From a virus (Duplodnaviria > Heunggongvirae > Uroviricota > Caudoviricetes), in IMG/VR virus record IMGVR_UViG_646311924_000007, positions 32,001 through 96,000 of that record: a DNA stretch of 64,000 nucleotides, one strand, 5' to 3'. A program made the position numbers and the translations under genes. A model generated the notes under the pieces. The model saw only the letters and a program-made list of their open reading frames with translations, had not been told where the DNA came from and made no database searches. Positions 1,495 to 29,200 of this stretch are shown here, piece by piece (position 1 is the first letter of the stretch; every line of letters begins with the position of its first letter).

Positions 1495-4400
1495 TCAACT
1501 CTCGCGTAGTCATTCATCAACGGATCATCAATTGACAGTGGTACCGTGCGCATAACGCCCGGCTGAGGCGTGCTGACCTTTACGACAGTTCCCTGGCCTT
1601 TCGCCGAGTCTTTGGTGTGCTCTTCAATCCTGGCAAGCAATGAGGTCATCTGCGCAAACAGCCGCTTCGTTTCACCATCAAGTGAAACGGTATTATCAGC
1701 CAACTGCATTGTCGGCTTGGCACCGGAACCGCCAAGGTCACTAATAACCTGCCCGTCTATCTGCATACGACCGGTTGGTTGCTGCAAATCGTTGGCGGCA
1801 GTCGTCACCTGGGACGTGGAGGCTGGTTCAGGCGCATTATTTTTCCGCATCCCCGGCGAGTTGCGGAGTTTATCGAATAGTCCATCAATCCCCATTTGTG
1901 CGCCGAGCTGGTCAAAGTAACTTGAGTTGTTGGCCACCGGACGCGCCTCTTCAACTGGCATCGGGGTATCAACATACACATTGCCAGCTGCTGTTGCGGT
2001 CCCCTTCCCTCGTGCACGTTCTTCTAGCGTTCCCTGAACGACTTCCCGACGCATCCCCCGGCCATTCATGAATTTGTTGACCAGATCGTTAACGCCAACA
2101 GCATTGCCGATTTTGTCTACCAAACCGCCTTTCTCAAACGGGCTATCACCAGGGGTAAACGCCAGACCAGTAGACTGATCGATAACGGCGTTATCAGGTA
2201 GTGGTTCCCTCACTCCATATTGCGCCCCACCCTGTGCTCCTGCCCCAGGTGTATAGATTTCACCACCTAAATAGCGAGCACGATGAGTATTGACCTTGAT
2301 CGCGTACTCACGGTTTTCCTTCGATAAGTCACCGGTGCCTTTTTTCCACTTATTAATAGTGCCAAACCCAGCGTTATATGCAGTGATGGCCTCGTTTAAG
2401 TCTCCATTGGCTTGCTTCAGATACTTGCTCATGAGAAGAGCCGCAGCTTCTGCCGATTTCACAGGATCAAACGATTCACCTTCAGCTAAGCCAGTCTCTT
2501 CACGAGCAATGCCCGTGAACTGAAACATTCCTAGAGCACCAGTTTGTGATTTTGCGTACGGATTACCACCAGATTCAGTTGCAGCAATCGCGTAAAGAGT
2601 GCCTTCAGGAAGACCATATTTATTCTCCAGTTCAGCAAAATACGGAGCTAACTTATCGAGATTTGCCTTACCTTCAGCGCCAAGGCTTCCGACTTTTACA
2701 TCTAAGTTGCCATTATTGTAGGTATCAGCAGCTTTCTGAATGTCATTCCTGGTGCCGGTGGTATTACGCGACGATGATGACGAGCTATTTTGTCCAATAG
2801 CTGAATCAATTTTCCGCACCGCGCTATTGCCCGTTTCTACGGCATTTGCATTGATAATCTGATTGGCAGTTTCTTTAACTGTTTTATTGCTATCTTTCGC
2901 CGTGTCCAGTGCCGCATTTATCACGCGGGTAGCAATATTAGTCTGTTTAGCATCGGATTCAGTTTTAGAATCAGATGTCTCCTGGTGGCTATTAACCGGA
3001 GCTTTTAACTCTGGAGTGATTTCTTTTGCATTAGCCTCGCCGATCGGATTGGGTATTTTTGATACAATCATTGCCGCAGGGGTATTTTTAACGGCATCAA
3101 CCGCTGCATCTAATGCTTTACCGGGTAAATTTTTAACCCCATCCCAAATATTACCAGCCGCCTCTTTAATGTGTTTTCCTGGGTTCTTAATGAAGTCAAT
3201 TGCACTATCAATTGCATCACTGAAAACCTGTTTCAGGTTATCGACAGTAAAGAAGTCTTTTATGGCATCCAGCTTTTCAAGCAACTTATTAGATGTATCG
3301 CTAAACCATGCTGAAACAGCATCACCAATCTTTGCTGTGTAATCATCGAACTTGGTAGAAATGGTGTCGCCAAGGTTAGAAATATATGTTTCTAAGTTGG
3401 TAACCCCACTATCAATGGCCTGGGCAATACTTTCCGTCGAAAATGATTGCAACATATTGCCGATATCCTCAAATCCAAGTGATTTGAGAACATCACCAAT
3501 AGCACTGCTAATACCAGATACCAGTCCCCCCATATCGAGAACATTGGCTAACGTATAAGCGGCTTTTTGCTGGAATGATGGATCTTGTCCTGATTTAAGC
3601 CCAAACGCTCGACGTTGCGCTTCTGTATCATTCCAACCGGTTACCGCATCATAAATACCTCCAGCCACTGTGCCGACTAGGGGAATTGCGCGTAACGCCC
3701 CTTTACCAACTGCCTTTAATCCAAGTTTACCTGCTGCCCGGGCAGCCAAATCTCCGCCTTCATGGGCGAGAGTCTTCTTGCCACCACCGCGTAGCATTCC
3801 TACAAGTTTCTTTGCCCCCAGAGCGCCAAAAGCGAGTGCTCCAGCTTTTTTCAGCATGCCACGCCCCATTAACAACGACGCGACGCCACCGGCCCCCTTC
3901 CCTAACAGGCTAAATAGTTTGGACAGCAAGCCGCCCTTCTTTTTACCGGTGTTTTTGGCTATCTGATCAAGGGCGCGGAGAATCTTGTCATTGCCCTCTT
4001 TAATTTCGCTGGTCTGCTCCTGAAGTTCCTGAACCGTCCGTTTTTGGGTGTTAACCTGAACGACATCGGCACTATTTTGCGATTTACGCCTAAAAAAACC
4101 TTTTCTACGGCTGTTATCGTCATTGCCACGAATCACATCGGCAATAGACTTTCTGGCACCATTAAGCGATCCACCAACTTCTTTTGATATCCCGCCAAGC
4201 TCCTTCCCTGCTGCCCACAATGGACCAGCAACGGCATAACCTAACGCATCGACAGCACGAGTCTCTGAAGGGTTGCCTATGCCTTCAGCTACTTTTGACA
4301 GTTTTTTTAATAAACCTGATTCAGCATTTAGACGCTCATCATCCTCTTTGCGCCTGGCCTTTTCAGCACGTTCAGCACGGGCATCTTCCGCTGCGGCCTT

Positions 4401-13706: not shown

Positions 13707-14522
13707 TTAGCCAAGGCGCTTACGGCGCAGTTTCATTGACTTTTTGCGGGCAAGTTTTGCCGCACCCGTCTGGGCTTTTCGACGCGCTTTTTTCAGCGCC
13801 GATTTTTGAGCCGCAGTCAGACGTTTTTTACGCAGGCGTTTACGGATGAGTTTGATCTCACCGTTACGAACAACCTTCTTAAATGCTTCAGTCAGCATTT
13901 CATCAGAAGTGCCAGCAACAACAAACGCCGCTTCCAGTTCGTCACGGTCGTCGCTATCTAAACCAGCGATAGAGGCACCAACATCAGCAGCTGCGTCGTC
14001 GTCTTCATCGTCAGCCAGTGCTTCGATCAGGTCATCATCTACACCGCATGCTGCGAGGAAGTCAGCAACATTTGCCCATGCTTCGTTATAGGCATCGTCC
14101 TGTTCTTCTGTAACTTCGGAGTCGTCGTCATCAGAGATACCAGCGATAGCCTGAACGAAACCATCAAGGGAGTCGAAAGTCAGATCACCGCTATCAGCCC
14201 AGGCGAAAACGGCGTCGGCCGCATCACTCAACGCATTCTGCATAGCACTTCTATTTGCAGCTTCCAGAATCATCTGGTGCGCCTGTTCGACGGTCCATTC
14301 TTTACCGTCTTTCCCTTCCAGGATTTGCTCAGGAGCCGGGGCAGATGGAACGTTATCGTTAGTCTGTGCCGCCGGTTCCGGATTATTATTAATAACCGGA
14401 TCTGTTGGCTGTTCGGCGCTTGCTCGGGCAGACTCCATCAGCTGCACAGGATCAGAGTTCAAAGCGAAACGAGACAGTCCATTCCCCAAAAATGCCCCGG
14501 ATTGAAAAAAGTTTTTGCTCAT
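13707..14522 (-). CDS. acidic protein with highly basic C-terminal tail
   Basis: 271 aa; Asp/Glu-rich centre and Lys/Arg-rich C-terminus (KKRLTAAQKSALKKARRKAQ). Confidence 0.45.
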   Translation of the reverse strand: MSKNFFQSGAFLGNGLSRFALNSDPVQLMESARASAEQPTDPVINNNPEPAAQTNDNVPSAPAPEQILEGKDGKEWTVEQAHQMILEAANRSAMQNALSDAADAVFAWADSGDLTFDSLDGFVQAIAGISDDDDSEVTEEQDDAYNEAWANVADFLAACGVDDDLIEALADDEDDDAAADVGASIAGLDSDDRDELEAAFVVAGTSDEMLTEAFKKVVRNGEIKLIRKRLRKKRLTAAQKSALKKARRKAQTGAAKLARKKSMKLRRKRLG

Positions 14523-14531
14523 TGTATTCCC

Positions 14532-16121
14532 TTACTTAATAAGCAGCGGTACGCCCTGGATACGACGGGCTACGCCAGTCGGGCAGCAGGCCCAGACTAC
14601 TTCCCATTTATCGAATTCCGCCTGCGTAACTTTCAGCACATACGGTTCTGTACCGTCAGCATCAGGATCACGAGGAGCCACCAGAGCGCCGGAGGCGACA
14701 AAGCGATCTAAAAGTTTGGTCATCCCTTTAGTCAGGCCAGCCGCAGTAATACCGTCCGGGCTATGCTTCATCTGTCGGGCTAACTGGACAAAGAAACGGC
14801 TGATTGCATTCATCAGGGATGGGACGTGCTGGAAGTGCAGATAGTTATCCTGCGTGCAGCAAGTTAAAGCATCGTCGATGATCATCTGGCCAGAGGTGCC
14901 AACAGATACTTTATTGAGACGGCCCTTGACCATTGCTTCTTCGTCCGGGGTATCTTCCGGATACAGCGGTTGAATTGACGCACGAGCAATGACGGCACGT
15001 TCTTCACCAGCCGGTGAGTAATGCCAACCGCCGACATCAGAGTTTTTCTTGACGCCACGAGCTTTCGCCGCATACGCCACGCCAGACAGACCAAAGACCA
15101 CACGGGATTGGGTCCATTTGTCTTTGCAGGAGAACGGGTAGTGATAGACAGCACAGCTTACATAATCGGTACCAAGTAAACCGGTATCTTCAACAGCAGA
15201 GAGCGCTTCCGTATACGTCAATGTCGGTTTGACATCAAAGAAGCCATCAATCAGGCGATCAGAACAGATATTACCTAACGCGGTGATCGCCGCATTGTCA
15301 TAGCAACCCAGGCCGAGAACAGCGGTGTACATGTACGGCGCATTGTTCAGCACCTTAACCGCACGCAGGTACGCAGCGGTTGAGATTTTCGACTGATCAC
15401 CGTTGGTACCACCAGTGAACGCCAGCGATTTTTTATTTGTTACTTTCGCCGTCGAAATCAGCTCTTCATTAACAACCGCGCGCAGATATTTAGAACGGGC
15501 TTCCAGAGCCGTAGGCAGATAACACAAGCGGCCCATGTCATCTTTCGCTTCTTCCGCCAAAGACACAGTGTGTGTCTCCAGGGTCGTTACCACGCCGAGC
15601 GAAGTCGTCTGGGTCAGTTTTAAGAGGAAGCGTTCATTACCCGCGCTGTCCGCTGTTGCCGTTTCGATGGTTAACTCACGGGTAGGTGAAATACACGGAT
15701 CACCATCATCAACGTAGATAGCAAAGGCTTCGCCACTATCAAGTTCAATTTCAGAACCGTATGGCAACGCACTGTAAGCCGGTTCGCCTGATTCATCGAA
15801 CATAATAATCGGGAACTTCGCATCATCCGGAACAGCACGAACAACATAACCTGACGTTTGCTGAATAGCTTCGTATACATGGCGAATTGGTTCGAACTGT
15901 GAGCCGGAAGACGGCTTCAGCGGTTCGCCGAGAACATCTTTGTAATTGGACTCAGTAACCGCAAGAACAGTAAACGGCTTGCCACGCGCAAATACGCCAA
16001 TACCAGCCCACAAGCTGCTATTTAATGCAACACCGGTAGATAACGTCGCATCGGCATTGATCGGGCTAACCGCGACGCCGGATGCATTACCTAATGACTG
16101 TTGAATTGAATATTGAGACAT
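14532..16121 (-). CDS. phage structural protein (possible sheath or head-associated protein)
   Basis: 529-aa ORF immediately downstream of putative capsid gene; family not resolved. Confidence 0.4.
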   Translation of the reverse strand: MSQYSIQQSLGNASGVAVSPINADATLSTGVALNSSLWAGIGVFARGKPFTVLAVTESNYKDVLGEPLKPSSGSQFEPIRHVYEAIQQTSGYVVRAVPDDAKFPIIMFDESGEPAYSALPYGSEIELDSGEAFAIYVDDGDPCISPTRELTIETATADSAGNERFLLKLTQTTSLGVVTTLETHTVSLAEEAKDDMGRLCYLPTALEARSKYLRAVVNEELISTAKVTNKKSLAFTGGTNGDQSKISTAAYLRAVKVLNNAPYMYTAVLGLGCYDNAAITALGNICSDRLIDGFFDVKPTLTYTEALSAVEDTGLLGTDYVSCAVYHYPFSCKDKWTQSRVVFGLSGVAYAAKARGVKKNSDVGGWHYSPAGEERAVIARASIQPLYPEDTPDEEAMVKGRLNKVSVGTSGQMIIDDALTCCTQDNYLHFQHVPSLMNAISRFFVQLARQMKHSPDGITAAGLTKGMTKLLDRFVASGALVAPRDPDADGTEPYVLKVTQAEFDKWEVVWACCPTGVARRIQGVPLLIK

Positions 16122-16181
16122 AACTTTCCCTGTTATGCGCCCCGCACGGGGGCGCTATGTTAAACGGAGAACTTCCCCTGA

Positions 16182-17909
16182 TTACTCAGAGTCACCGGCA
16201 TCAATCGTGTCGCCGCTTATGAAGTTAAGCCCGCCTTTTTTGGCCATTGTCAGCGTTACACGAGTGAAGTAATCAGCGCCGTTGCGTGGGTGCATATCGT
16301 TGATAGCCGAACCCCACAGTGTGGTACGGTTGACCAGCGCCGGAGTGGTCGGATGCTGGAACGGGATAGCCGGGACAGCATCACCAGTCACGAAGCCTGC
16401 TTTACCCGGATTTTCATCACGGACGTAGCACAGCACATCCATCGAGCTGAACTGAATGTTCTCTGTCGTTAAGTTCTTACAAATACCAGCAGGTACTTCG
16501 TACACTTTCACGTTACCGAACAGGGTACCGATGTAGTGAACATACGGAGTCTGGATATAGTCTTCGGCTGGCTGGAAGAAATCCTTCGGCAACTGTTTGA
16601 AGAAAGATGCTGCATCAGCACCAGCAAACATCCCCATCGCACCAGAAGATTTAACGCGCTCAATAATGTCGCGATATACAGTCTGGAATTTGCCACGAAT
16701 GATGGTTGCCCATACATTAAAGGACTGGTTAACCGGCAGAGCGATGTCAAAGGTGTCGGTCGCAAGAGTACGCCAGATCATGATGCGAAGACGCAGCATA
16801 TCCTGTTCATGAGACAGGTATTCCTTCAGGGTGCGGAACTGTAGGGAACCCAGGTCCAGACCAAATTCACGCTGTGCTTCATACGCCGCCTGTACCGTGT
16901 GCTCAGCCGCGATAACGAACTGACTTGGGAACAGGGTGTATTTCTTCATTTCGTGGTTGATCAGCGGGATCAGCTCAGGTGCGGCTTCAATATTGATTTC
17001 CGTCTCAATTGCGATCTCAGTGCCTTTATCCGGCGCTTTGGAGAACGACAGGGCAATCTGACCAATGTTGTAGTTCAGAGAGCAGGTAACAGTGATTTGC
17101 TCACCAGCAGCATTAGTAAACGAGTGAAGTAGGCTGCCGGAACCGTTATCAACAACAGACTTAATACGGTTAACGTAGATGTTAGTGCGACCTTTTCGGA
17201 TTGGTACATTCTGGCCTTCGAAGTCTTCCATCTTGAAGGTTGCGGTTTTGCTGGTGCCATCGGAGCTTGCCACCAGCACATAGCGGCGACGTAACTGGCT
17301 GTACACACCAACGGATTGCATGTCCAGAACATCACCAGCAGCATAAGAACCAAAAGAGGAACCTGCCACGTTAAAGACTTCATAGATGTCGGACTGGTCA
17401 CGCGTAACCGGAATGAAGGTACACGCATCAGCGGTAGCTGCCCCCAACTGAACAGGCAGGATCATCGCGAGGAATAAAGGCAGACGCATAACACCGTCAG
17501 AAACGCTCATCATCTCTGCTGCGACGGATTCCAGCATCGCTTTATTAGTGGCATCCATGCTATTGCGGGTGGACTCAATCAGGCAGTTTTCCAGCGTCTG
17601 GTGGCAGGAGGCCAGAATTTCCGGACGCGGCATAGATTTATGTGCTGCGGCGTAGTCAGCCAGTGCACTTGCCCACGCTGTAGCGATTTGAGCGGTGGCA
17701 TTATCAGAGATACCCGCAAAAACCGGGTCTTTACGTGCAGCTTCAAGGATAGATGCGGCACGCGCGGCATCATCTTTAATGAATTGGTTATCAGTACCGA
17801 ACTGCGCAGTGCTTGCCCAGCCAAGCACAGCTTTAGAGCGTTTTGCGATATCTGCAATACGATTCTGGTATTCGCGTAAGTTACTCAATTTACTCTTCCT
17901 TAAACACAA
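16182..17909 (-). CDS. probable major capsid protein precursor (P1 gp23 position)
   Basis: 575-aa ORF adjacent to parS/parB, where P1 carries gene 23. Confidence 0.5.
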   Translation of the reverse strand: MCLRKSKLSNLREYQNRIADIAKRSKAVLGWASTAQFGTDNQFIKDDAARAASILEAARKDPVFAGISDNATAQIATAWASALADYAAAHKSMPRPEILASCHQTLENCLIESTRNSMDATNKAMLESVAAEMMSVSDGVMRLPLFLAMILPVQLGAATADACTFIPVTRDQSDIYEVFNVAGSSFGSYAAGDVLDMQSVGVYSQLRRRYVLVASSDGTSKTATFKMEDFEGQNVPIRKGRTNIYVNRIKSVVDNGSGSLLHSFTNAAGEQITVTCSLNYNIGQIALSFSKAPDKGTEIAIETEINIEAAPELIPLINHEMKKYTLFPSQFVIAAEHTVQAAYEAQREFGLDLGSLQFRTLKEYLSHEQDMLRLRIMIWRTLATDTFDIALPVNQSFNVWATIIRGKFQTVYRDIIERVKSSGAMGMFAGADAASFFKQLPKDFFQPAEDYIQTPYVHYIGTLFGNVKVYEVPAGICKNLTTENIQFSSMDVLCYVRDENPGKAGFVTGDAVPAIPFQHPTTPALVNRTTLWGSAINDMHPRNGADYFTRVTLTMAKKGGLNFISGDTIDAGDSE

Positions 17910-18023
17910 GGCACTTGTGTGAATCCCTTTTCGGAAGAGATTTTATTGAAAGTCACTTGTTGACTTTCTCGTGACAAGCAATTTTTTTATTTTTTCGGGA
18001 GTAGGGGAGGAAGGTAAAATCCA

Positions 18024-18110
18024 AGGTGAAATCGTGGCGATTTCACCTTGAAATTTTAGATGGATTTACTTTAAAAACAGTAGGTTAATAGTGAAATTTG
18101 AATGGCGAAA
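18024..18110. promoter_or_regulatory. parS: parS partition site
   Basis: Box A heptamers (ATTTCAC/GTGAAAT at 18026, 18040, 18091) and box B hexamers (TGGCGA at 18035, 18104) flank an AT-rich IHF-like spacer, just downstream of parB. Confidence 0.65.
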
Positions 18111-18112
18111 GT

Positions 18113-19114
18113 TTAAGGCTTCGGCTTTTTATCGAGGCTCTTTCTAAGGATATGCCCAATCATCCTGTCGAGTTCTTCCTGTAGCTCTTTTGAAAGTCGA
18201 TTAAACTCATAAGAAAATGCACGGCCTTTCACGCGCTTCCTTGCAAAGCGATCCTTGTCCTCAAATTTCCATAATTCAGTAACTACGGACTTATCTTTAG
18301 AACCTTTATCCGTGAGTAGTGAGGCTTCCTTTGTTATCAAGCGCAGGATTTTATTTTTAACTTCATCTTCGGCCATTTCTTCAATGGATAAGATGTCGTT
18401 TATTTCCGGGGATATGTTTTGAATAAGCTGATCAAACTCTAAATTCTTGTTCCCCATTTCGTCGCCAACAGCACAAAGCGTTTTGTAGTCCGAAAAGGTT
18501 AATTCCGACTGCACAGGGAAAAGGGCGACTAATTCTTCCGGAGCACTCGCTGCCTGGAGAGCACGCGTGACCTTAGCCTGAGACAGCCCTTCTTTGGCTG
18601 CAATATCCTTCTGACTCATCCCATCATTTTTCATTCGCATCAAACGCAGACCTATTTCTCGAATGCTGTGCTGCAATGCTGTCTGAACGTCTTTCGCTAA
18701 ATTTTGCGCTTCCTGAACGCTGATCTCCTGGTCCGTGACTAAAACCCGCAACCCTACGTTCTCTAAGATGGCAGAAGCTCGACGCCGGGAACCATCCAAA
18801 ATTTCAATTTTCCCTGTACCCCGTCTAACACCTATTGCAGGGTAAAATTGCTGATGCTTAATAGTGCTTCGGATACTTTTTAATGATTTTGGCGTAAGAG
18901 ATGCCTGGTCACGCCCGTTGTTATGCTGATCAACAAAGGTATCGCTTTCTACCTGGTTCGGAGGTATTACCTCTTCAATAAATGTGGCCTGGCGACCAGT
19001 TGATAACTTGAATACCTGCTCGACTCGATCGCCAGAGGCTGAAGAACTATCAAATCCGCTTAATATTGAAGGATTAAGGGTTCGCCCAATTGTTGGTCTG
19101 TTTTTCTTTGACAT
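18113..19114 (-). CDS. parB: partition protein ParB
   Basis: 333 aa beginning MSKKNRPTIGRTLNPSILSGF, matching P1 ParB as recalled; HTH region; follows parA. Confidence 0.9.
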   Translation of the reverse strand: MSKKNRPTIGRTLNPSILSGFDSSSASGDRVEQVFKLSTGRQATFIEEVIPPNQVESDTFVDQHNNGRDQASLTPKSLKSIRSTIKHQQFYPAIGVRRGTGKIEILDGSRRRASAILENVGLRVLVTDQEISVQEAQNLAKDVQTALQHSIREIGLRLMRMKNDGMSQKDIAAKEGLSQAKVTRALQAASAPEELVALFPVQSELTFSDYKTLCAVGDEMGNKNLEFDQLIQNISPEINDILSIEEMAEDEVKNKILRLITKEASLLTDKGSKDKSVVTELWKFEDKDRFARKRVKGRAFSYEFNRLSKELQEELDRMIGHILRKSLDKKPKP

Positions 19115-19130
19115 GGGGGTTTCTTACTCC

Positions 19131-20327
19131 TCAGTTAGATCTGATAAATTCAATACGGTCAAAAACTGCTTTAGCAAAATCTTCCGCGGCAATTCGCGCG
19201 TTCTTCAATGCATCAGCACTACCAACATACGTTGCCGGGTTAGCTGAAATAACAGTGTCAAAAGACTCGCCGCAACGTTCAAAACCGTCAAGGCGAGGGA
19301 GGACGACATCGAGCATATCCCCACCGAACACTTCTTTAGCCAGGCTATGGCAATACTTATGATCTGCCTTGTTACTCAACTTGGACATAAAACCAATGTT
19401 AGTCGCAAGCTGGCACTCGCAGCCTTCATCCGAAATGAGTTTCACCAACTCAGGAAGGCGGGCAACGTATTTAAGCGATGAGTGGAAATCGACAGTTGCT
19501 GGCGGCAGAGGTGTAAACAGTATATTGGCCGAGGCCAAAGCATTTTTCAGGAAGGCGTCAAGGTGAGGACCACTATCAACGAGGATAAAGTCATAATCGC
19601 TCTTCAGCTTATCAATCACATTTTCTTTCAGGACAGCATGGATGTTCTGACCCGGTAGATGCTCATTGCACAGCTCTCTCCAATCGGATGCAATAAAGGC
19701 ATCGTCAATCGACGCAGGCATAACGTCAACCCCAGGTACAACAGAAGGAACAATAAACTCCTCTAACAGCTCTTCACGGCTTACATTCTGCAACATAGCC
19801 TGTGCAGATGTTGCGTTTACGATACCAATAGAGTGTTTATGGCTTAAAAACATCGTTGCTGAAGATTGCGGATCAAGGTCAATAACCAGAATCCTTAAAT
19901 CTTCCATCAGAAGATGAGGGTGAGCACGCATTGCATGCGCCAGAGAAACCGTCGATACAGTTTTTGACACACCGCCTTTAAGATTGGAGATGAAAATCAC
20001 ATACGCTTCGCTGTAGCGATCCCGGTATTTTGGCACTCCGCGATGTTCATATATGTCAATGATGTTCTGAATTGACATCGCATATTTCATTGAAGAGCCA
20101 GCAGGGCGTTTATCGAAAACATAACCCTTTTCTTCCATTTCACTTACGGCATAGTCAACGTTCGCTCGAGTCAGTAGAGGCAATTTTGCCAGTGCCGCTT
20201 TCGCATAGACCTGGTAAAACTCGTTCGCGTGTAGCTCATCCTTTTGCAACTGTACTTGTTCAGTCAGAACATTGAGCATTCTGTTTGCTCTTTGAGCAAC
20301 CTTGTGAAGCTGGCTGGAATCACTCAT
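19131..20327 (-). CDS. parA: partition ATPase ParA (type Ia)
   Basis: 398 aa with N-terminal HTH extension and deviant Walker A (NLKGGVSKT). Confidence 0.9.
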   Translation of the reverse strand: MSDSSQLHKVAQRANRMLNVLTEQVQLQKDELHANEFYQVYAKAALAKLPLLTRANVDYAVSEMEEKGYVFDKRPAGSSMKYAMSIQNIIDIYEHRGVPKYRDRYSEAYVIFISNLKGGVSKTVSTVSLAHAMRAHPHLLMEDLRILVIDLDPQSSATMFLSHKHSIGIVNATSAQAMLQNVSREELLEEFIVPSVVPGVDVMPASIDDAFIASDWRELCNEHLPGQNIHAVLKENVIDKLKSDYDFILVDSGPHLDAFLKNALASANILFTPLPPATVDFHSSLKYVARLPELVKLISDEGCECQLATNIGFMSKLSNKADHKYCHSLAKEVFGGDMLDVVLPRLDGFERCGESFDTVISANPATYVGSADALKNARIAAEDFAKAVFDRIEFIRSN

Positions 20328-20465
20328 CGAAAGTCATCCTTTATGCTGTATTTTTGAATTTAATTAAAAATGCTGCATAAAATAATAATGTATGCGTAGA
20401 TGCTTGTACATGGCATTCTCTGCATGTTTTGTTCATTTTGCACGATTGAGAGTTACAAGAAAGGC

Positions 20466-20488
20466 ACAAAAAAGCCCCGTTCAGGGGC
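20466..20488 (-). terminator. rho-independent terminator (GCCCC/GGGGC hairpin)
   Basis: Hairpin 20474-20488 with A-run on plus strand (T-run on minus); lies between upstream minus-strand genes and parA promoter. Confidence 0.45.
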
Positions 20489-20495
20489 ATCAGTG

Positions 20496-20900
20496 TTATT
20501 TGCTAAGAGCAGCGAATAATCGTTCGAAATCGATAGTATCTATAGCACGCGTAAGCGCCGGAAGTTCAGCCTCAAAGTACCCGTGTCGATCGTAAAAGAA
20601 GGGACCGAAGAGCGAGGCATGTTGGATTCTACTTCGCCCCAGCCCGGACACACAGTTAAGCCCATTACCGGCTAAAAGGCTAAAAAACTTCTCTGGATTA
20701 TCGTGGTAAAGCTGAGAATCAATGGTGGCGGTTAACTCTTCCATAGGGAAGCACACCCGCCCTGTCTCCCAGGGATATTTAGTCCGAAGCATAAACATTG
20801 CTTTCAGCAATTCACATTGAGCGCGGATCGCGTCCGGTTCATAGCCAGATATGGAGACATAAGCCACGTCCCTCATTCCTGCGTCATCTTTGAAAGTCAC
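20496..20900 (-). CDS. hypothetical protein
   Basis: 134-aa ORF between incA and parA. Confidence 0.45.
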   Translation of the reverse strand: MTFKDDAGMRDVAYVSISGYEPDAIRAQCELLKAMFMLRTKYPWETGRVCFPMEELTATIDSQLYHDNPEKFFSLLAGNGLNCVSGLGRSRIQHASLFGPFFYDRHGYFEAELPALTRAIDTIDFERLFAALSK

Positions 20901-20969
20901 GATAGAAGTAACATCCAGTTCTTTTTCGAAAGAGCGAGCAGCATCTACTGGACGCTGAAGTAAATCATT

Positions 20970-21305
20970 CTACTTAATGCGCTCGAGAATCCCTCCCCAC
21001 ATATCATTTAGATATTCGATATGAGCCAAAACCTTATCAAGACACTCTCGTGTAAACCATTCAGTATGCCCGCCACCGGCGCTTTTCTCCCACGGCGCAT
21101 TCCAGGGGAAAAAGGTTGCGTGTAAAGCCCGCTCAAGATTAACCATTGCCAAACGCGTACCACGATAGACCCGTGAAAGCGCAAAATCGGGACTCACTTG
21201 TAGCCCTTTAAACCGTGCCAATGGACCACATGAAATGCCGATTTTAAAAGTATCTCCGTTCTCCGGCACCAGAACGTAGAGGTAGTGTTGTTTCTCTTCT
21301 TGCAT
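20970..21305 (-). CDS. T5orf172/GIY-YIG-like domain protein
   Basis: 111 aa; N-terminal YLYVLV....FKIGIS and C-terminal HTEWF resemble T5orf172-type GIY-YIG proteins. Confidence 0.45.
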   Translation of the reverse strand: MQEEKQHYLYVLVPENGDTFKIGISCGPLARFKGLQVSPDFALSRVYRGTRLAMVNLERALHATFFPWNAPWEKSAGGGHTEWFTRECLDKVLAHIEYLNDMWGGILERIK

Positions 21306-21334
21306 ATCAATACCACTGCTTGATGAGAACCGCG

Positions 21335-21595
21335 CAAATGTTGACTATGCGCGAAAGTTAATGTGAATAGTTGACTATGCGCGATGTGACTACAGTCAAA
21401 AGTTGACTGTAGTCGATTTAACTCCACCAAAGATCGACTATGTAAGATATTGTCGGGAGAAACGTTGACTATACGCGATGAAATGACCCTAAAAGCCATC
21501 TCAATAGCGACTTGCAGAATATTGACGCCAGCAAAAATCCACCAGCGTCAACGAATGTCGCCTATAGTCAACTTCTCGCTATCGCATATAGTCAA
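21335..21595. repeat. incA: incA-like iteron array (about 9 copies, both orientations)
   Basis: Repeated ~19-bp units with core GTTGACTATGCGCGA / TCGCATATAGTCAA downstream of repA. Confidence 0.65.
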
Positions 21596-21597
21596 TA

Positions 21598-22539
21598 TTA
21601 TGGATTGCGCTTATGGATCTGAAAGCCGATTTTCCTGCCGTTTTTTATCTCTGAAAATTTAAGATATTCAATAGCTTCCAAATCTTTCATGGCTTTTCTG
21701 ATAACGCTATTTTGCACGCTAACGGATGATTTGAGATTAAGCCTTGCTCTAAGGCGCTCAATGCTGACAGGTGCCGGGTTGGCGGGTAGAGCCTCAAAGA
21801 ATGTATACAGTACCTTGGCCGTCTCTTTGCGCCCGAGCTTATCCAGCATCTTCAGCTTCAGGATTCGCTTATAGTCAACATAGTAAAGTTCAGATAGCTG
21901 TTTCTGCGGCTGGATCTCGATAACATCAAGCTCGGTATTCAGGCTGCTATATGCCAACAAGTTGACGTTAATGTTATTGAGATGACCTTTTGCCGCCGGG
22001 AAGCGGAATTTGACAACTGTCTGCTGAATGCGTGTCAGAGAGTCATCAATACTTTTACGGAACGCCTTTGAAAGGCGCTTACGTGGATAGCCGCATCGAT
22101 CGGCAAACTCGGAGAATGGCAGGGTGATTATGCCGTCATCATCAGGTGCGTAGTCAAACAACGCGGAGGTTATGCCCACCCACACCTTAAAATCAGTATC
22201 CATATCCAGGCGTGGACCATGAATTTCAATTCCCTCATAGCCTTCCTGCTCAACAATTTTGAGGCTTGATAGTTCTTCGGTTGCGTTCGTTGTGTTTGTA
22301 GTAACTGACGATCCGCGACGTAGTGCCACATTGGTAGATTTTAAGGTTGGCACAAACACACCTAAGCGCAACAAAGCAATGGGTTGTATAGTGCTATTGT
22401 TATTGGGTTTCAGGCTGTGGATTTCTCCTGTATTTCCTGCAACTTCTTCAACGCTAAGGAAGCCTTTATTTTCTTCCAGCATCGTGGTTTCTCCATATGT
22501 GGCGCGGCCTGGCGTCATCTGGATTGCAGTTATCAACAA
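21598..22539 (-). CDS. repA: plasmid replication initiator RepA
   Basis: ORF flanked by iteron arrays on both sides as in P1 oriR-repA-incA; true start may be an internal Met. Confidence 0.75.
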   Translation of the reverse strand: MLITAIQMTPGRATYGETTMLEENKGFLSVEEVAGNTGEIHSLKPNNNSTIQPIALLRLGVFVPTLKSTNVALRRGSSVTTNTTNATEELSSLKIVEQEGYEGIEIHGPRLDMDTDFKVWVGITSALFDYAPDDDGIITLPFSEFADRCGYPRKRLSKAFRKSIDDSLTRIQQTVVKFRFPAAKGHLNNINVNLLAYSSLNTELDVIEIQPQKQLSELYYVDYKRILKLKMLDKLGRKETAKVLYTFFEALPANPAPVSIERLRARLNLKSSVSVQNSVIRKAMKDLEAIEYLKFSEIKNGRKIGFQIHKRNP

Positions 22540-22557
22540 CTGTGAATAGTCAGGCTC

Positions 22558-22663
22558 TAAAATCGCGTACAGTCAATGTTTCTGTCGCATATAGTCAACA
22601 ATAAATCGCGTGCAGTCAACAATAAATCGTGCACAGTCAACATAAAATCGCGTATAGTCAATG
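22558..22663. repeat. incC: incC-like iterons (5 direct copies) / plasmid origin
   Basis: Five ~19-bp repeats AAATCGCGT(A/G)CAGTCAA(C/T) at ~21-bp spacing upstream of repA. Confidence 0.7.
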
Positions 22664-22815
22664 TTGATCCCATTTCAGGCCAGAAATGGCGCGGCTTACA
22701 GCGATCCGGGATCTTCTTTGGATCTTCCTGGGTTCTCTTTAGGATCTGTTTATTGGATCTATGCTGTGGATAAGTTGAATAAACCGGCCAACATAGCCGG
22801 TTGGAAGGAAGGGTA

Positions 22816-23208
22816 TTATTCTACGCTTTCGATAAGAAGACCATGTTCATAACATTTAAGCTCATCGCCTTCGTACAGGAATTGGTATCCAATACCACCA
22901 TTTTCATGGACATTAGGGAATAACTCATAACTCACTGAAGAGCAAATCACACCAATGCAGCGATCAACGCCTTCTCGTTCTTCAGTGCTGAAAAAATCCT
23001 CTTCGGTAAGAACATGAGTACATTGCTCATCAGCATAGGTCGGAAATACATGCTCGATGCAATCCGGGTGTTTTAAACCAAGCTGATCGGCAAGCTCGAA
23101 AGCATGACGGTATTGTTCAGATCCTGGCTTGCCAACAGTGATGTGCTCAATTTTGTAGATTGAAGTCGCTTTGTTGATAGTTTGCTTTACTGTTACTTTA
23201 TCAGACAT
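22816..23208 (-). CDS. hypothetical protein
   Basis: 130-aa acidic ORF adjacent to the replicon. Confidence 0.45.
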   Translation of the reverse strand: MSDKVTVKQTINKATSIYKIEHITVGKPGSEQYRHAFELADQLGLKHPDCIEHVFPTYADEQCTHVLTEEDFFSTEEREGVDRCIGVICSSVSYELFPNVHENGGIGYQFLYEGDELKCYEHGLLIESVE

Positions 23209-23219
23209 AAAAATCCCTT

Positions 23220-23471
23220 TTAGTTACCGCTGATAGCGCGGTTGTAATCATTAACGTTGCGATTCTTCCTGTTAATCCCCATCAGCATCGTTTCTGTATC
23301 GAGGATATACGCTGGCAGATCATCAAAATATTCACTGCTAAACTCTGGCATCCTGCACATAAACGCACTTTTGGGGGCAGGGTGGTTAACCTTTGTCGGC
23401 GTCGGCGTTAAATTCGCTGATCGACTCCCGGAGCAACCGCTGAGTGTCAGCAGGAATGCGCTGGCGAACAT
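23220..23471 (-). CDS. lipoprotein (mlp-like; possible o-spanin)
   Basis: Lipobox LTLSGCSG after Met at 23471; 5' part lies inside the overlapping TM/coiled-coil gene in another frame. Confidence 0.45.
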   Translation of the reverse strand: MFASAFLLTLSGCSGSRSANLTPTPTKVNHPAPKSAFMCRMPEFSSEYFDDLPAYILDTETMLMGINRKNRNVNDYNRAISGN

Positions 23472-23808
23472 TACCCGCCGCAACCAGTTGTTTCTGAACT
23501 TCAGCTTTTCGTTCCATTTGCCTGTCAGCATATTTGGCTTGTTCTGATTCATTTTTCACTTCCTGGCTGTGAAAATGTTGCTCTGCTTTGTTCATCGTCT
23601 CAATGGTCTGGTTAAGATCCATTATTGACTTATCACGTTCCTTAACAGCCTGATCAAGACTGCCAATTTTCTCCATGGCTTGCTTTAGCTGATGACGTTC
23701 CCATGCAAACCCAGCACCAACAAGTGCGCAAATCAGAACAAGAACACCAGTAGCAGCAAGTTTCTCCTTCAAAGACAAAGCTGTTTTTAACGTAGAAAAG
23801 AATGACAT
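23386..23808 (-). CDS. membrane-anchored coiled-coil protein (possible i-spanin)
   Basis: Start taken at Met 23808 (MSFFSTLKTALSLKEKLAATGVLVLICALVGAGFAW), TM then coiled coil; overlaps lipoprotein gene out of frame. Confidence 0.4.
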   Translation of the reverse strand: MSFFSTLKTALSLKEKLAATGVLVLICALVGAGFAWERHQLKQAMEKIGSLDQAVKERDKSIMDLNQTIETMNKAEQHFHSQEVKNESEQAKYADRQMERKAEVQKQLVAAGNVRQRIPADTQRLLRESISEFNADADKG

Positions 23809-23847
23809 GTCTTCCTCCTGAAGAAAAATTATCAATGAAGTCCTTTG

Positions 23848-24693
23848 TTACCGTGCCGCTTTGTTTAATTCATCAAGAACAGAATCAGGAACCAAAGCGG
23901 CGACTGCGCTGGCTGTGCTGGCCTTATTTGCTGATGCTTCCGCAAGCGCGGTACCGATAGCATGGTTATAAGCAGTTATGGCTACGTTGGCGCTTTCATT
24001 CGCTCGTTCATACTGCTGTTGTAACGCAGTTGTGGGTGCTGTTGTCTGGTTGAAAACAACCCCAAACTGTTCAGTTGCTACTTTCAGAGATTCAATTTGC
24101 TCTTCTGTTAGTGCTGGTGGGGGAGTGGCAGTGCCGCCGCCTGAACCAGAGCCTGACGAGCTTTCTGAGCCAGTGTTAAGGGCCTGGTTAATCTCCCCCA
24201 TTGCAGCGACTAAACTTGATGTATTAAGCGCGTTAACAGCGTCCTCAAGCGATTTAGTAATATTCACATCACCAATGGCAATAGAGATCGGCAGTTCTGA
24301 AACTTCTCGCTCATTAGCACGGCAGTAAACATCCCAACCAATATCGAGTTGAAGCAGCATTGACAGATCTGCATAACCAGCCAACAGGTCCGCGTGCTTA
24401 GTTGCCAGTTCTCCAATGTTCGTTAAGCCGGTTGTGGTTGTTCTGATCGTTGAAACATAGCTGGTAATAGTGTCGGGATAGACAATTGTATCCAGAATTA
24501 ATCCGGTCAATTCTTCTGCAAGCAGTTTTGCTGTGTTAGCACTGTTTCGTGCCGATGTTATGGCACCAGGTGTTTTCATCCCACCGGCGGCGGCCAATTT
24601 TTTATATGCGGATAACTGGTAGTCTTTTTCCAGCATGATATCTCCTAACTTACCTGAACCAGGCCGTCTCCGGACGCTACGGTAGATCCGCAT
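23848..24693 (-). CDS. hypothetical protein with Ser/Gly-rich linker
   Basis: 281-aa ORF downstream of PAAR-like gene. Confidence 0.45.
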   Translation of the reverse strand: MRIYRSVRRRPGSGKLGDIMLEKDYQLSAYKKLAAAGGMKTPGAITSARNSANTAKLLAEELTGLILDTIVYPDTITSYVSTIRTTTTGLTNIGELATKHADLLAGYADLSMLLQLDIGWDVYCRANEREVSELPISIAIGDVNITKSLEDAVNALNTSSLVAAMGEINQALNTGSESSSGSGSGGGTATPPPALTEEQIESLKVATEQFGVVFNQTTAPTTALQQQYERANESANVAITAYNHAIGTALAEASANKASTASAVAALVPDSVLDELNKAAR

Positions 24694-24929
24694 GAAACAG
24701 GGTCACCAACGCATACGATCCCTTTACCATTGACGGTAAACCATGCCCTGGTTGATATAGCTTGCCCACCGTGCGTACTGTTTCCATCGGTATGCTGTGC
24801 ATATTGCTTACCATCAACTAACACTTCGACTCCGTTGACTTTAAGTAGTGGTTCACTCTCTACAGGAGGCCTGGATGGGAATCCTCCGTGCCCCGAACAA
24901 ATGCTGTCTTTTGTTGCAATGCTTGCCAC
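24645..24929 (-). CDS. PAAR-like spike-tip protein
   Basis: 94 aa with SGHGGF, HTDGNSTHGG and VCVGDPVSCGSTV motifs typical of PAAR-repeat proteins. Confidence 0.5.
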   Translation of the reverse strand: MASIATKDSICSGHGGFPSRPPVESEPLLKVNGVEVLVDGKQYAQHTDGNSTHGGQAISTRAWFTVNGKGIVCVGDPVSCGSTVASGDGLVQVS

Positions 24930-25010
24930 GCCATCACCAATTATTTGCTCTGATTTTCGTTATTTTAACTTAGGTTATTTGTGGTCTGTATGGCGTTTAC
25001 TTATCGCAAA

Positions 25011-25027
25011 ATTGCTCTAATAAATAT
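25011..25027 (+). promoter_or_regulatory. C1 operator-like site (ATTGCTCTAATAAATAT)
   Basis: 16/17 to consensus, in divergent intergenic region between PAAR-like gene and uhr/hrdC/dmt operon. Confidence 0.65.
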
Positions 25028-25383
25028 TGTTTTTTATGTCGTATTTTCGGTACCATTCAGCCATCGCCCTTCAATGGGCATTTGTTTGGAGTCGTCAGAT
25101 GCAGATGGAGCTAATAAGCCGCAAAGAGTTCGATAGCCGTGTAACCAGCGGTGAACTCGACAACTTGCAGGCTATCAAGGTGAAAGAAGGCTTTTGCCTC
25201 ATTGGGAATCAGAGCGGAATAAATCGCGTTTTTATGCTTCGCCGTACGGATTTGAAGCCATTTGTCTGGAAGAACGAAATTGGTCCCAGCTCATACGCTC
25301 AAACGAGGGGGTGCCACAACCTGGCCTTTTTCTACAAAGACGAGCTTTCTGTGGTTGATATTCAAGGGTTACAACATGTTTAA
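25027..25383 (+). CDS. hypothetical protein upstream of hrdC (uhr position)
   Basis: 118-aa ORF; start uncertain. Confidence 0.4.
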
Positions 25384-26281
25384 GCACTGGAAAAACATTA
25401 CTATTTATAAACTTTCTCGTGAGGCGGATCTGACCGACTTAGAAGATAAAAAGAAAATGATCCTTTTCACGCCATGCGGTAGTCAGGATATGGCCAAGTT
25501 CGGTTTTGTATCGCCATTTGGTGATAATTCTGAAGTTATCGCTATGCATGGAAATGGTTTTATCCTTGTTGAAGCAAAGCGCGAAACAAAAATTCTTCCC
25601 CCGCCGGTTATCCAGCGAGCTATTCAAGAAAAAATTGAAAAACTTGAGCAAGAACAAGCGCGTAAACTGAAGAAAACAGAGAAGGACTCCCTGAAAGACG
25701 AAGTTCTGCATTCTCTTCTGCCACGGGCTTTTTCAAAGTTTTCTGTTATCCAGGCGATCTACGACGGTTCAACTAAACGTATCTATATCAATGCCAGCGC
25801 GCGGCAGGCAGAGGATATGCTCGCGCTTATGCGTAAGTCTCTGGGTTCTCTTCCTGCTGTTCCCCTGAGTGTTGAAAATCCCATTGAATTAACGCTGACC
25901 GACTGGGTACGTGATGGTAGTGCTCCACAGGGATTTCAAATGGGGGATGCGGCAGAACTTAAGGCAGTGCTTGAGGATGGCGGTATTGCCCGAGTGAAAA
26001 AGCAGGATTTGGGAAGCGATGAAATTTCCACACACCTGGAAGCTGGCAAGCTCGTCACTAAGTTGGCACTCGACTGGCAGAACCGCATTAAATTTACACT
26101 GGACCATAACTTCAGCCTTACCAGCGTCAAATTTGCGGATGAATTGCTTGAGCAGAACTCTGATATTGATAGTGAAGATGTTGCGCAGCGACTGGACGCA
26201 GATTTCTTCCTGTTGACCAGTGAAATTTCGTGCCTGGTTGATGCTCTGGTAAATGCCCTTGGCGGAGAGGCTAAGCAGTGA
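25376..26281 (+). CDS. hrdC: RdgC-like recombination-associated protein
   Basis: 302 aa from ATG 25376; long identity runs to E. coli RdgC as recalled ([45 protein letters not shown]). Confidence 0.85.
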
Positions 26282-29200
26282 AAGAGCTGTGCTATGGATC
26301 TGTTTGCAGTGGAATTGAAGCCGCGAGTATTGCCTGGGAACCGTTGGGTATGCGTCCGGCGTGGTTTGCTGAAATCGAGCCTTTTCCATCGGCCGTTCTT
26401 GCGCTCCGCTGGCCCCATGTTGCCAACCTTGGCGACATGAAAAAACTTGCCAAAAAAGTCTTGGCTGGGGAAATCGAATCCCCTGACGTGCTCGTCGGGG
26501 GAACACCATGTTTTACCGCGGGGCATATGGTTCTTTGTAAAAATGGCTATAAACCAATAGAAAATGTTTGCCCTGGTGATTACGTAGTCAGTCATCTCGG
26601 GCGGTTACAACAAGTAAAAAGAGTTGGTTCAAAAATAGCTAATACGGGGTTACTTAATGCCGTTGGGCAGCCTTTAGGTATAAGAACAACCAATGACCAT
26701 CCCTTCCTGGCTGTTCGGTGGAAAGCCCAAAACACCCGGAAAAATGGCACATATTTTAAGAGAGAGTTGTTGTCTGAACCGGAATGGCGAGCAGCATGTG
26801 ATATGCCGGGATATCAATGGTGCGCTCTAACTAATTTCAATATTGCATTTCCAGATATTTGTTCTCGGTTCTTGTCTGAAGAACAGGCTATGTATCTTGC
26901 GGGCGCTTATGTTGGCGATGGATATATTAGGAGATGGAGAGGTAAATCTAAGAAGGCGGTTGTTTTTGGCATAAATTGCCAGAAATTGAGAAAGTTTCAT
27001 TGCCGCATACCAGAAAACATATTTTCCGTGGCAAGCGAAATCCGAGGGAGCATCAAAGTAACCTTGAATGATACGTGTTATGCCAATTGGCTTAATGAAC
27101 ATTTTGGCGAGTTAAGCCATGCTAAGCGTATCCCTGCATGGGTGATGTCGCATCCATTGCGTCATGTGTTTTTACAAGGCTATCTTGATACTGATGGGAC
27201 ACCAAGTGGTAAAGCGGGATTTAGAATTAATAGTGTTAGTTCTGCGCTTGCTTGGGGCGTTGCGGGGTTGTCACAGACTTGTGGTTATGTTTCTTCGGTC
27301 AGCTTTATTGAAGTTGAGCCCAAAAAAGTGATCGAGGATCGCGTGGTAAATCAACGGAATTATTATCAGGTAACAATCTGCCCGCAGAAATTGTCACGTA
27401 AATCAAGATTGGCTCATGGAATGCTTTTACGAACAGTCAAAGAGTTTAAATCGGTAGGCCTAGATACTGTATACAACATAGAAGTCGAAGGTGATCATTC
27501 CTATATCCTCAATGGTGCGGTGGTCCATAACTGTCAGGCATTCAGTATCGCGGGATTACGTGGTGGGCTTGATGATGAGCGTGGCGCGCTAACTTTAAAG
27601 TATGTGGAGCTTGCAAATGCAATTGACGACAAACGGGCTGAGTCATTTCTCAAACCAGCCGTTATCGTCTGGGAAAATGTCCCAGGAGTCTTGTCATCGG
27701 CAGATAACGCCTTCGGATGTTTCCTTGCCGGATTGGCTGGAGAAGATGTGCCATTTGAACCAGGTGATCGACCTGAATCAGGAAAAAGCAACGCGTTCTG
27801 GCGGTGGGATGGCAAAACCGGTTGCCATGTTCCAAAGTGGCCGCAGTGTGGTTGTATTTATGGACCGCAGCGAAAAGTGGCCTGGAGAATCCTTGATGCC
27901 CAATACTTCGGAGTGGCACAACGACGCCGACGCGTGTTTGTTGTCGCAAGTGCTCGAACAGATCTCGATCCCGCAACGGTACTTTTTGAGTTCGAAGGCG
28001 TGCGCCGGAATATTGCGCCGAGCAGAGGCGAGGGGAAGGAAACTACCAGATATACTTCAAACATCGCTATCAGAACTTGCGATGATACAAACATAATTGC
28101 CATGGCACATGGGCAAGGAGGGGCTGAGATAAAAACCGATAATTCGGCACCAACTTTGACATGTAACCATGAAGCACCAATTGTATTGCTCGGCGACGGT
28201 AGAATGCGCCGTCTTACCCCTGTCGAATGTGAAAGGCTGCAAGGTTTTCCTGATTGGCATACGTTGATCCCTACGGAAAAGCGTAAAAAAGTTAATTCAG
28301 ATGAACTGGCATATCTGCACAATCACTATCCAGATTTAAGCGAAGAAGAGGCCGCAATGCTTGCAGCTGACGGACCGCGTTACAAAGCGATCGGCAATAG
28401 TATGGCAATACCAGTAATGCGCTGGATTGGCGATCGGATTACTAAGGCCGTATGTCGGCAGAAAGAAGGAAGTGAAACAAAAGAGCGAAAAGTTAAACCA
28501 GCGGCAGAATTCGAACGGTCCATATTCAAATGGGCTGGTGGAAAATTTGGTGTTCTGGAACAAATCTTTCGCTATTTGCCAGAAGGGAAGCGCCTGATTG
28601 AACCTTTCGTTGGTGGCGGAGCTGTCTTCATGAATGCCGGATACCAGGAAAATCTGCTAAATGATGTGAATGCTGACCTGATTAACTTTTACAAGACTCT
28701 GCAACGCGAGGCGCATTCACTTATCACTCTGGCACATCGTTTCTTCCAGGACTACAACACACAGGAAGGATACCTGGCAGTACGGAATGCGTTTAACAAA
28801 CAAGTCTATGATGATTTACATCGCGCAGCGGCGTTTTTGTTCCTGAACCGACATTGTTTTAACGGATTGACGCGTTACAACCAGGCCGGTGAGTTCAATG
28901 TCGGTTATGGGAAGTATAAAACTCCGTATTTCCCATTACAGGAGATGGAAGCCTTCCTCGGTGCGGAAGGGCGGTCTGAGTTTGTATGCGGTGATTTTGC
29001 AGCGGTGATTGAAGCTGCCGGAGAAGGAGATGTCATCTTTTGCGATCCGCCGTATGAACCGCTTCCAAATACAGAGGGATTCACGAACTATTCCGGTCAT
29101 GACTTTAAGTTTGAAGAGCAAAAACGCCTGGTGTCTCTGTTGACGGATGCTCATCGTCGAGGTGCAAAGGTTCTCATTACTAACAGTGGCGCGCCAAACA

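Follow-up and report, generated by a model that had tools for sequence, protein, structure and literature searches.

A T5orf172/GIY-YIG family gene at the edge of the p0111-type replicon cassette of P1-like phage-plasmids is interrupted by a single nonsense mutation in one sublineage

What lies between the control iterons and the partition genes of a P1-like replicon, and how did it come to stand there? In P1 the first incA iteron is approximately 270 bp from the start of parA and the space in between is free of genes, in line with a first-pass annotation of the present locus, which had the incA iterons of P1 followed closely by parA. P7 lacks a gene at the same place; it is colinear with an IncY/P7-par plasmid that is likewise gene-free there. 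In the window analyzed here, a 64,000-nucleotide stretch of a P1-like phage-plasmid with its repA-to-parA modules all on the minus strand, two open reading frames (ORFs) occupy this interval. The first-pass annotation took them to be two genes of accessory cargo, a T5orf172/GIY-YIG-like gene and a 134-aa gene of unknown function, inserted between the incA iterons and parA of P1. The features of the locus are as follows.

22816-23208, minus strand: upfA, first in the minus-strand gene order
20430-22678: p0111-type replicon cassette, in place of the P1 IncY cassette (blastn against P1)
22558-22665: origin (incC-like) iterons, five copies at 21-22-bp spacing (repeat families D1 and D5)
21598-22482, minus strand: repA, p0111 type, Rep3 family (Pfam Rep3_N and Rep3_C)
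21336-21596: incA-like iterons, an array belonging to the p0111 replicon and distinct from P1 incA (repeat families D2-D4)
20496-21305, minus strand: T5orf172/GIY-YIG gene, 269 aa if intact, interrupted here (one frame, one internal stop)
20973-21305, minus strand: N-terminal fragment of this gene, 111 aa, with the complete T5orf172/GIY-YIG domain
20970-20972, minus strand: premature TAG at codon 112 (TCG to TAG, changed base 20971; alignment with pEC190329_2 and phage 673R5)
20496-20969, minus strand: C-terminal part, linker and winged-helix-like domain, including the 134-aa ORF at 20496-20900
20474-20488, minus strand: intrinsic-terminator-like hairpin and T-run 3' of the gene (scan)
20382-20410, minus strand: Ppar promoter, P1-homologous, just beyond the cassette edge (P1 annotation transferred through a 98.9% alignment)
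19131-20327, minus strand: parA, P1 type, 100% amino acid identity, flanking the cassette on the outside
18113-19114, minus strand: parB, downstream of parA, 100% identical to P1

Both ORFs are present as such on the minus strand, one of 134 aa (20496-20900, GTG start) and one of 111 aa (20970-21305). They share one reading frame, with only the TAG at 20970-20972 between them, and translation of 20496-21305 gave 270 codons with one internal TAG, at codon 112. Alignment showed that codon 112 is TCG in pEC190329_2 and in phage vB_EcoM-673R5, and RefSeq lists a single 810-nt CDS in relatives, encoding a 269-aa 'GIY-YIG nuclease family protein' (WP_032247076). The family phrog_2876 spans residues 1-269 of the joined protein. 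A 63-nt probe centred on codon 112 matched 399 plasmid records; its TAG form was exact in 11 of these and had one mismatch in 388. We also sampled 70 full-length copies from phage, plasmid, viral-contig and metagenome collections, and found the gene intact in 59, with TCG at codon 112 in every intact copy, and disrupted in 11. Six of the 70 copies carried TAG112, among them the window and plasmid NZ_CP027223.1, which is 100% identical to it over the cassette, and these carriers differed from one another by 0-2 nt. The two closest intact alleles (L057 and L059) were one base away from the window, at exactly the base that creates the TAG.

We conclude that the interval holds one gene, which a single-base nonsense mutation of very recent origin has split in one sublineage, and that the window copy is a fresh pseudogene of which the two ORFs are the halves. 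The 134-aa ORF, first annotated as a gene of its own, is the C-terminal portion of the same 269-aa protein, which is why it has no Pfam match. The protein encoded in the window stops after the nuclease domain and lacks the putative targeting domain, so its function has probably been lost here. RefSeq lists two CDSs at this locus in NZ_CP027223.1. In the same plasmid (L004, locus 1683-3066) parA is not annotated and tblastn aligned ParA residues 116-356 only; its parA may be disrupted, while that of the window is intact.

Comparison with P1 by blastn showed that the gene belongs to a larger block of sequence. The window is 98.9% identical to P1 across 14301-20429 and 96.1% identical across 22679-26511, and between these tracts, at 20430-22678, similarity to P1 was nil except for a 59-nt patch. 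Here 2249 bp of the window (2.25 kb) replace the 1491-bp (1.49-kb) IncY cassette of P1, comprising its incC iterons, repA, incA and spacer. The left homology break (20429/20430) lies 67 bp past the stop codon of the gene, just upstream of the Ppar -35 box, and the right break (22678/22679) falls within oriR, separating the iterons from the shared part containing the GATC and DnaA-box sites. As the tracts shared with P1 end at 20429 and begin again at 22679, the iterons and repA of the window are not those of P1. The window RepA is 41% identical to P1 RepA, and relatives have this repA annotated as an 885-nt RepB-family initiator. The iteron core of the window cassette is TCGCGYATAGTCAAC, unlike the P1 iterons. 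The incA-like array is built from repeats D2-D4 with the core TCGCG(Y)ATAGTCAAC in both orientations, and the core octamer is over-represented (7 copies found, 1.3 expected). P1-type RepA and 19-bp iterons, which characterize the IncY replicon, were looked for in the window replicon and not found. The ORF-calling program opened repA at a TTG at 22539 (313 aa), whereas annotations of relatives begin at the ATG at 22482 (294 aa); the extra segment (window 22483-22539) runs into the promoter/iteron region, and its translation is unlikely.

The window cassette and the IncY replicon of P1 and P7 share a common plan, with origin iterons, a Rep3-family repA and downstream control iterons followed by Ppar-parA-parB; the window differs in its RepA, in its iterons and in the extra 810-nt gene with its terminator. 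The cassette was found in 403 plasmid records, and window positions 20300-21650 were 98.7-99.3% identical at the nucleotide level to JL22, SJ46, RCS47 and others. The replicon of JL22 has been typed as p0111 (PMC9603915), and the window cassette was near-identical to the p0111 repA' region (98.9% to JL22, ON018986.2, over 1351 nt). The p0111 replicon of P1-like phage-plasmids has already been described, with this gene given as an unknown protein and without domain analysis or function (PMC9603915); the window carries that same locus with a nonsense mutation in the gene, the allele seen in 11/399 records. The first-pass observation was real but mis-parsed, as a single base change has split what is one gene of the known p0111 replicon. 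Presence of the genes in P1 at this position would have refuted the first-pass annotation, and P1, like P7, lacks the coding sequence. The array it had named P1 incA is not P1 incA, and its proposed insertion into the P1 maintenance module gives way to replacement of the whole IncY cassette as a unit. As to accessory cargo, the gene is dispensable and repeatedly inactivated, but it was not dropped into P1's own module and belongs to the p0111 cassette.

Directly after the stop codon of the gene, at 20488-20474 on the minus strand, is the hairpin GCCCC-TGAAC-GGGGC followed by TTTTTTGT. It separates the gene from Ppar, for which a scan gave the promoter-like match TGTACA-17-TATTAT, in agreement with the initial description of a terminator insulating the parA promoter. 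The hairpin was unchanged in three aligned relatives of the window locus and a comparable one lies 3' of the homolog in locus L080, but none was detected after the homologs in loci L005 and L078, and we rejected the terminator as a conserved feature of the gene. At the other end, the start codon of the gene is 30 bp from the last iteron, and a search between the iterons and the ATG detected no sigma-70 promoter of its own. The absence of a detectable promoter-like site upstream of the gene suggests read-through from repA. Base composition gave no signal of foreign origin (47.5% GC in the gene and 47.9% in the window).

The N-terminal half of the protein belongs to a recognizable nuclease family, as the first-pass annotation had proposed. 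The 111-aa ORF matched Pfam T5orf172 (PF10544, GIY-YIG clan) over residues 8-86, scoring 30.3 bits (cut-off 20; E 6e-7), and matched phrog_681 'endonuclease' with an E-value of 5.5e-9. The 134-aa ORF gave no match to Pfam. Four lineages of the full-length protein (25-44% identity) have invariant Y8, Y10, K21-x-G23, R31, E58, H62 and T81-E82-W83-F84, and by analogy with GIY-YIG nucleases these residues are putatively catalytic. We used an AF2 model of the window's own lineage (P0001); the model of lineage P0009 was too poor in its C-terminal half (pLDDT below 50). In the model the nuclease domain has the GIY-YIG fold, and the C-terminal domain is a winged helix with a possible resemblance to the WH1 domain of plasmid Rep proteins, at modest structural scores. 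WH1 is the dimerization and iteron-binding domain of Rep proteins such as pPS10 RepA and RepE. The closest matches to the model in BFVD were phage T5orf172 proteins, homing endonucleases and CapR-homology proteins. Searches of the C-terminal domain against Pfam at E 10, NCBIfam, PADLOC and a PDB sequence profile returned no meaningful known family, and neither Rep3 nor RepA_N was matched in Pfam even at E 10. We rejected sequence kinship of this domain with Rep of the same elements, as comparison with the five Rep proteins by hhalign gave a probability of 0.2%.

We searched 5.8 billion clustered proteins, and 1.84 billion representatives by a full HMMER scan, for homologs. Only four full-length lineages were found: P0001, which includes the window, P0004 (44% identical), P0009 (approximately 28%) and P0011 (approximately 25%). 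All other matches of the HMMER scan were to the T5orf172 N-terminal domain alone, and no relatives with the C-terminal domain only were found among the 1.84 billion representatives. A scan of species-representative genomes gave one locus, and viral and metagenome scans gave the same P1-like arrangement and no other genomic context. In all four lineages the gene lies between a Rep3-family repA and parA on a P1-like backbone, and the order upfA - repA(p0111) - gene - parA - parB was seen in all 70-odd fetched loci. The Rep partners are of three types: p0111-like (the window and L005, 84% identical), IncY-like (L078, whose RepA is 83% identical to P1 RepA) and a third type (L080). With homologs at the same position in four lineages, one of which has an IncY-like RepA, P1 and P7 are, within the wider group, the versions of the locus without the gene. 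The family is tiny, and the comparative signal consequently rests on few independent events.

At this single locus, genomes that are otherwise homologous either have the gene or lack it. An alignment of P1 with L078 runs through repA/incA and parA at 76% nucleotide identity, and the 882-nt gene of L078 stands where P1 has about 214 bp. We looked for a gene remnant in the 170-bp incA-Ppar spacer of P1 by local nucleotide alignment and tblastn and obtained only flank matches, with nothing above shuffle level; the lack of a detectable remnant in this spacer is compatible with either loss in P1 or gain elsewhere. Between lineages with RepA 84% and ParA 89% identical, the nuclease protein was only 44% identical. 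A pair of elements with nearly identical backbones, L005 (Logan ERR2144811) and L078 (Salmonella GCA_007478465.1), had ParA 100%, ParB 98% and gp23 99% identical, whereas their cassettes were divergent, with Rep 41% and the nuclease protein 28% identical. Their break points lie inside oriR and 63-84 bp past the stop codon of the gene. This pair is a clean natural case of a replicon-cassette swap. In both independent comparisons, of the window with P1 and of L078 with L005, the gene lies at or next to the boundary of a recombination tract. The nuclease gene is thus the terminal element of an exchangeable replicon cassette; it is a fixed passenger of the p0111-type cassette, which takes the place of the IncY cassette as a block.

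The gene has been inactivated repeatedly. The 11 disrupted copies among the 70 full-length aligned copies represent five independent mutations, and counting one further locus outside the 70, disrupted by an insertion sequence, there have been at least six independent disruption events. In addition to TAG112, we observed TAA at codon 228 at two loci (L032, a 103,445-bp viral contig, and L063), TAG at codon 68 (L047) and one-base deletions in two frameshifted copies, phage vB_EcoM-673R5 (L002) and L077, for which sequencing error is also possible. The locus outside the sample, a viral contig (L045:8277-10040), has a 1.76-kb insertion in the nuclease gene with nt 295-523 lost. The insertion contains ORFs for a 389-aa TnpB-like and a 141-aa Y1-transposase-like protein, and from its sequence looks like an IS200/IS605-family element.

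Across the sampled alleles, piN/piS of the nuclease gene was 0.30 as a whole, 0.24 for the N-terminal half and 0.33 for the C-terminal half, compared with 0.02 for repA, 0.01 for parA and 0.05 for parB. Selection on the nuclease gene is weak purifying selection. A ratio of 0.30 is still purifying, and also fits a function that benefits the host. Since the gene is repeatedly inactivated in nature it is dispensable, and the sequence data together indicate a gene that is functional yet dispensable and fast-evolving. Degenerate copies within populations are a feature of free-standing homing endonucleases, and were present here.

T5orf172 genes have been described as free-standing homing endonucleases that sit beside essential genes, at the boundaries of genetic exchange between phages (PMC10448857). 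The cassette-edge position, the presence/absence polymorphism, the fast divergence, the recurrent decay, the apparently intact active site and the predicted winged helix, taken together, are best fitted by a site-specific nuclease acting on co-resident P1-like elements. We infer nuclease activity, DNA binding, a target and homing for the intact protein, which would be a site-specific DNA endonuclease of the free-standing homing type. Targeting would fall to its winged-helix domain, which would bring the GIY-YIG domain onto a site in a co-resident P1-like element with another cassette, and repair from the nuclease-bearing copy would carry the gene and the adjacent replicon into the rival. With its targets exhausted, the gene would decay. 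For the whole of this, the anatomy of the p0111-cassette gene together with a homing-endonuclease-like, replicon-linked site-specific nuclease, we put the chances of being right at about even. Against this reading, co-inheritance with repA may come from physical linkage alone, the purifying selection would equally suit a host-beneficial role, and the four lineages supply few independent events.

The resemblance to the T5orf172 homing endonucleases of ICP1 and T5-like phages (Barth et al. 2023, PMC10448857) is broad: a T5orf172 domain with its conserved motifs, a free-standing gene between conserved essential genes where a recombination tract ends, variable presence among genomes, and copies that often degenerate. 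There are also differences. The window gene is in a plasmid-maintenance module and not near lytic essential genes, and its C-terminal domain is not a zinc finger, CapR or DUF723 domain and belongs to no Pfam family.

The strongest alternative, though an unlikely one, is a weapon of incompatibility that works without homing and benefits its own element: a C-terminal domain mimicking Rep WH1 would guide the T5orf172 nuclease to a competing replicon, at its iterons or origin, and that replicon would be destroyed. The competitor might be a second P1-like plasmid, a satellite, or an iteron plasmid of unrelated kind. A nuclease of this kind has precedent. Odn (Gp88) of phage ICP1 cuts the origin of the satellite PLE in an iteron-dependent manner (PMC8263062), and gp5, a second ICP1 gene combining T5orf172 with a Rep-type domain, is frameshifted in most isolates (PMC10448857). 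Odn, Gp5 and their homologs in coliphages Inny and Muut have, as the present protein may, T5orf172 joined to an initiator-like winged-helix domain, which in Odn and Gp5 is RepA_N; the frameshifts of Gp5 in more than half of isolates resemble the many inactivated copies of the present gene. A repA/iteron set accompanies the gene in every case.

However, the Rep-like domain of Odn is N-terminal and 42% identical to the RepA_N of its target, whereas the domain here is C-terminal, so that the domain order is reversed, and may be Rep3/WH1-like in structure only, with no sequence similarity detected to any Rep. Homology in sequence to the DNA-binding domain of the replication initiator, as in Odn, was not found here, given the hhalign probability of 0.2% against Rep of the same elements. 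No relatives with the C-terminal domain only were found among the representatives searched, which leaves the capture of a Rep specificity without any sign. The modest structural scores also count against a mimic of Rep. Further, Odn sits in a lytic phage that attacks a satellite, whereas the present gene adjoins a replicon. In a variant of the same idea, which seems to us no less doubtful, a Rep-mimicking nuclease inside the replicon would practice 'replicon homing', with the WH1-like domain recognizing the iterons or origin of rival P1-like elements and the T5orf172 domain cutting them. If this were true, nucleases would shape replicon type by eliminating competitors or driving their gene conversion, which would explain near-identical P1-like backbones with swapped repA cassettes edged by a nuclease gene.

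A second alternative, distinctly improbable, is a domesticated regulator of the replicon, in which the WH1-like domain would bind iterons, Ppar or RepA and tune copy number, handcuffing or par expression. The role of WH1 in Rep proteins would suit such a function, as would the conserved position straight after the incA-like iterons, the suggested read-through from repA and the purifying selection on both halves. The GIY-YIG domain would then, with similarly low probability, bind or nick DNA in the manner of CapR, a PLE protein and a precedent for domestication of a T5orf172 protein (PMC10448857). Three observations speak against regulation. The invariance of the putative catalytic residues argues for an active nuclease; the approximately 400 plasmids include many inactivated alleles and are evidently still maintained; and the IncY replicons of P1 and P7 work without such a gene.

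A nuclease for anti-phage defence or superinfection exclusion, to the benefit of the host, is more improbable still. GIY-YIG and T5orf172 domains occur in defence contexts, and the gene is accessory and fast-evolving. PADLOC gave no match and there are no partner genes, however, and the gene is strictly tied to the replicon cassette and is not found in the variable cargo regions of P1-like elements (PMC9603915). Least probable by far are two separate accessory cargo genes, for a small GIY-YIG protein and a 134-aa protein, inserted between P1 incA and parA: both ORFs exist in the window, have RefSeq CDSs in NZ_CP027223.1 and are absent from P1 and P7, but they share a frame broken by one TAG that 388/399 plasmids do not match exactly, 59/70 copies encode an intact 269-aa ORF, the nearest intact allele is one base away, and the flanking repA and iterons are not those of P1.

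The new elements here are few: the domain analysis, a position conserved across four lineages, and the association with the cassette edge. These make a hypothesis of a homing or origin-directed nuclease testable. For the window itself, a known replicon variant with a freshly inactivated gene, the practical implications are modest. Resistance genes are commonly carried by P1-like phage-plasmids, whose typing relies on the replicon (IncY or p0111). If the nuclease gene at the cassette edge drives cassette exchange, or if it removes competitors, it would provide a mechanism for replicon switching and escape from incompatibility. The concept of Odn and the homing endonucleases would then extend from conflicts between lytic phages and satellites to plasmid maintenance modules.

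Two further observations concern the typing and the modular structure of these elements. The replicon named p0111 by the literature and by PlasmidFinder is labelled 'IncHI1B' by MOB-suite (PLSDB), which affects approximately 400 records. In two E. coli plasmids (L081 and L082) the IncY repA is paired with parAB of the P7 type (ParA 401 aa, ParB 321 aa), and in the first of these IS1, a hok-family toxin gene and IS26 are found immediately past repA. In these plasmids the replication and partition modules have reassorted independently.
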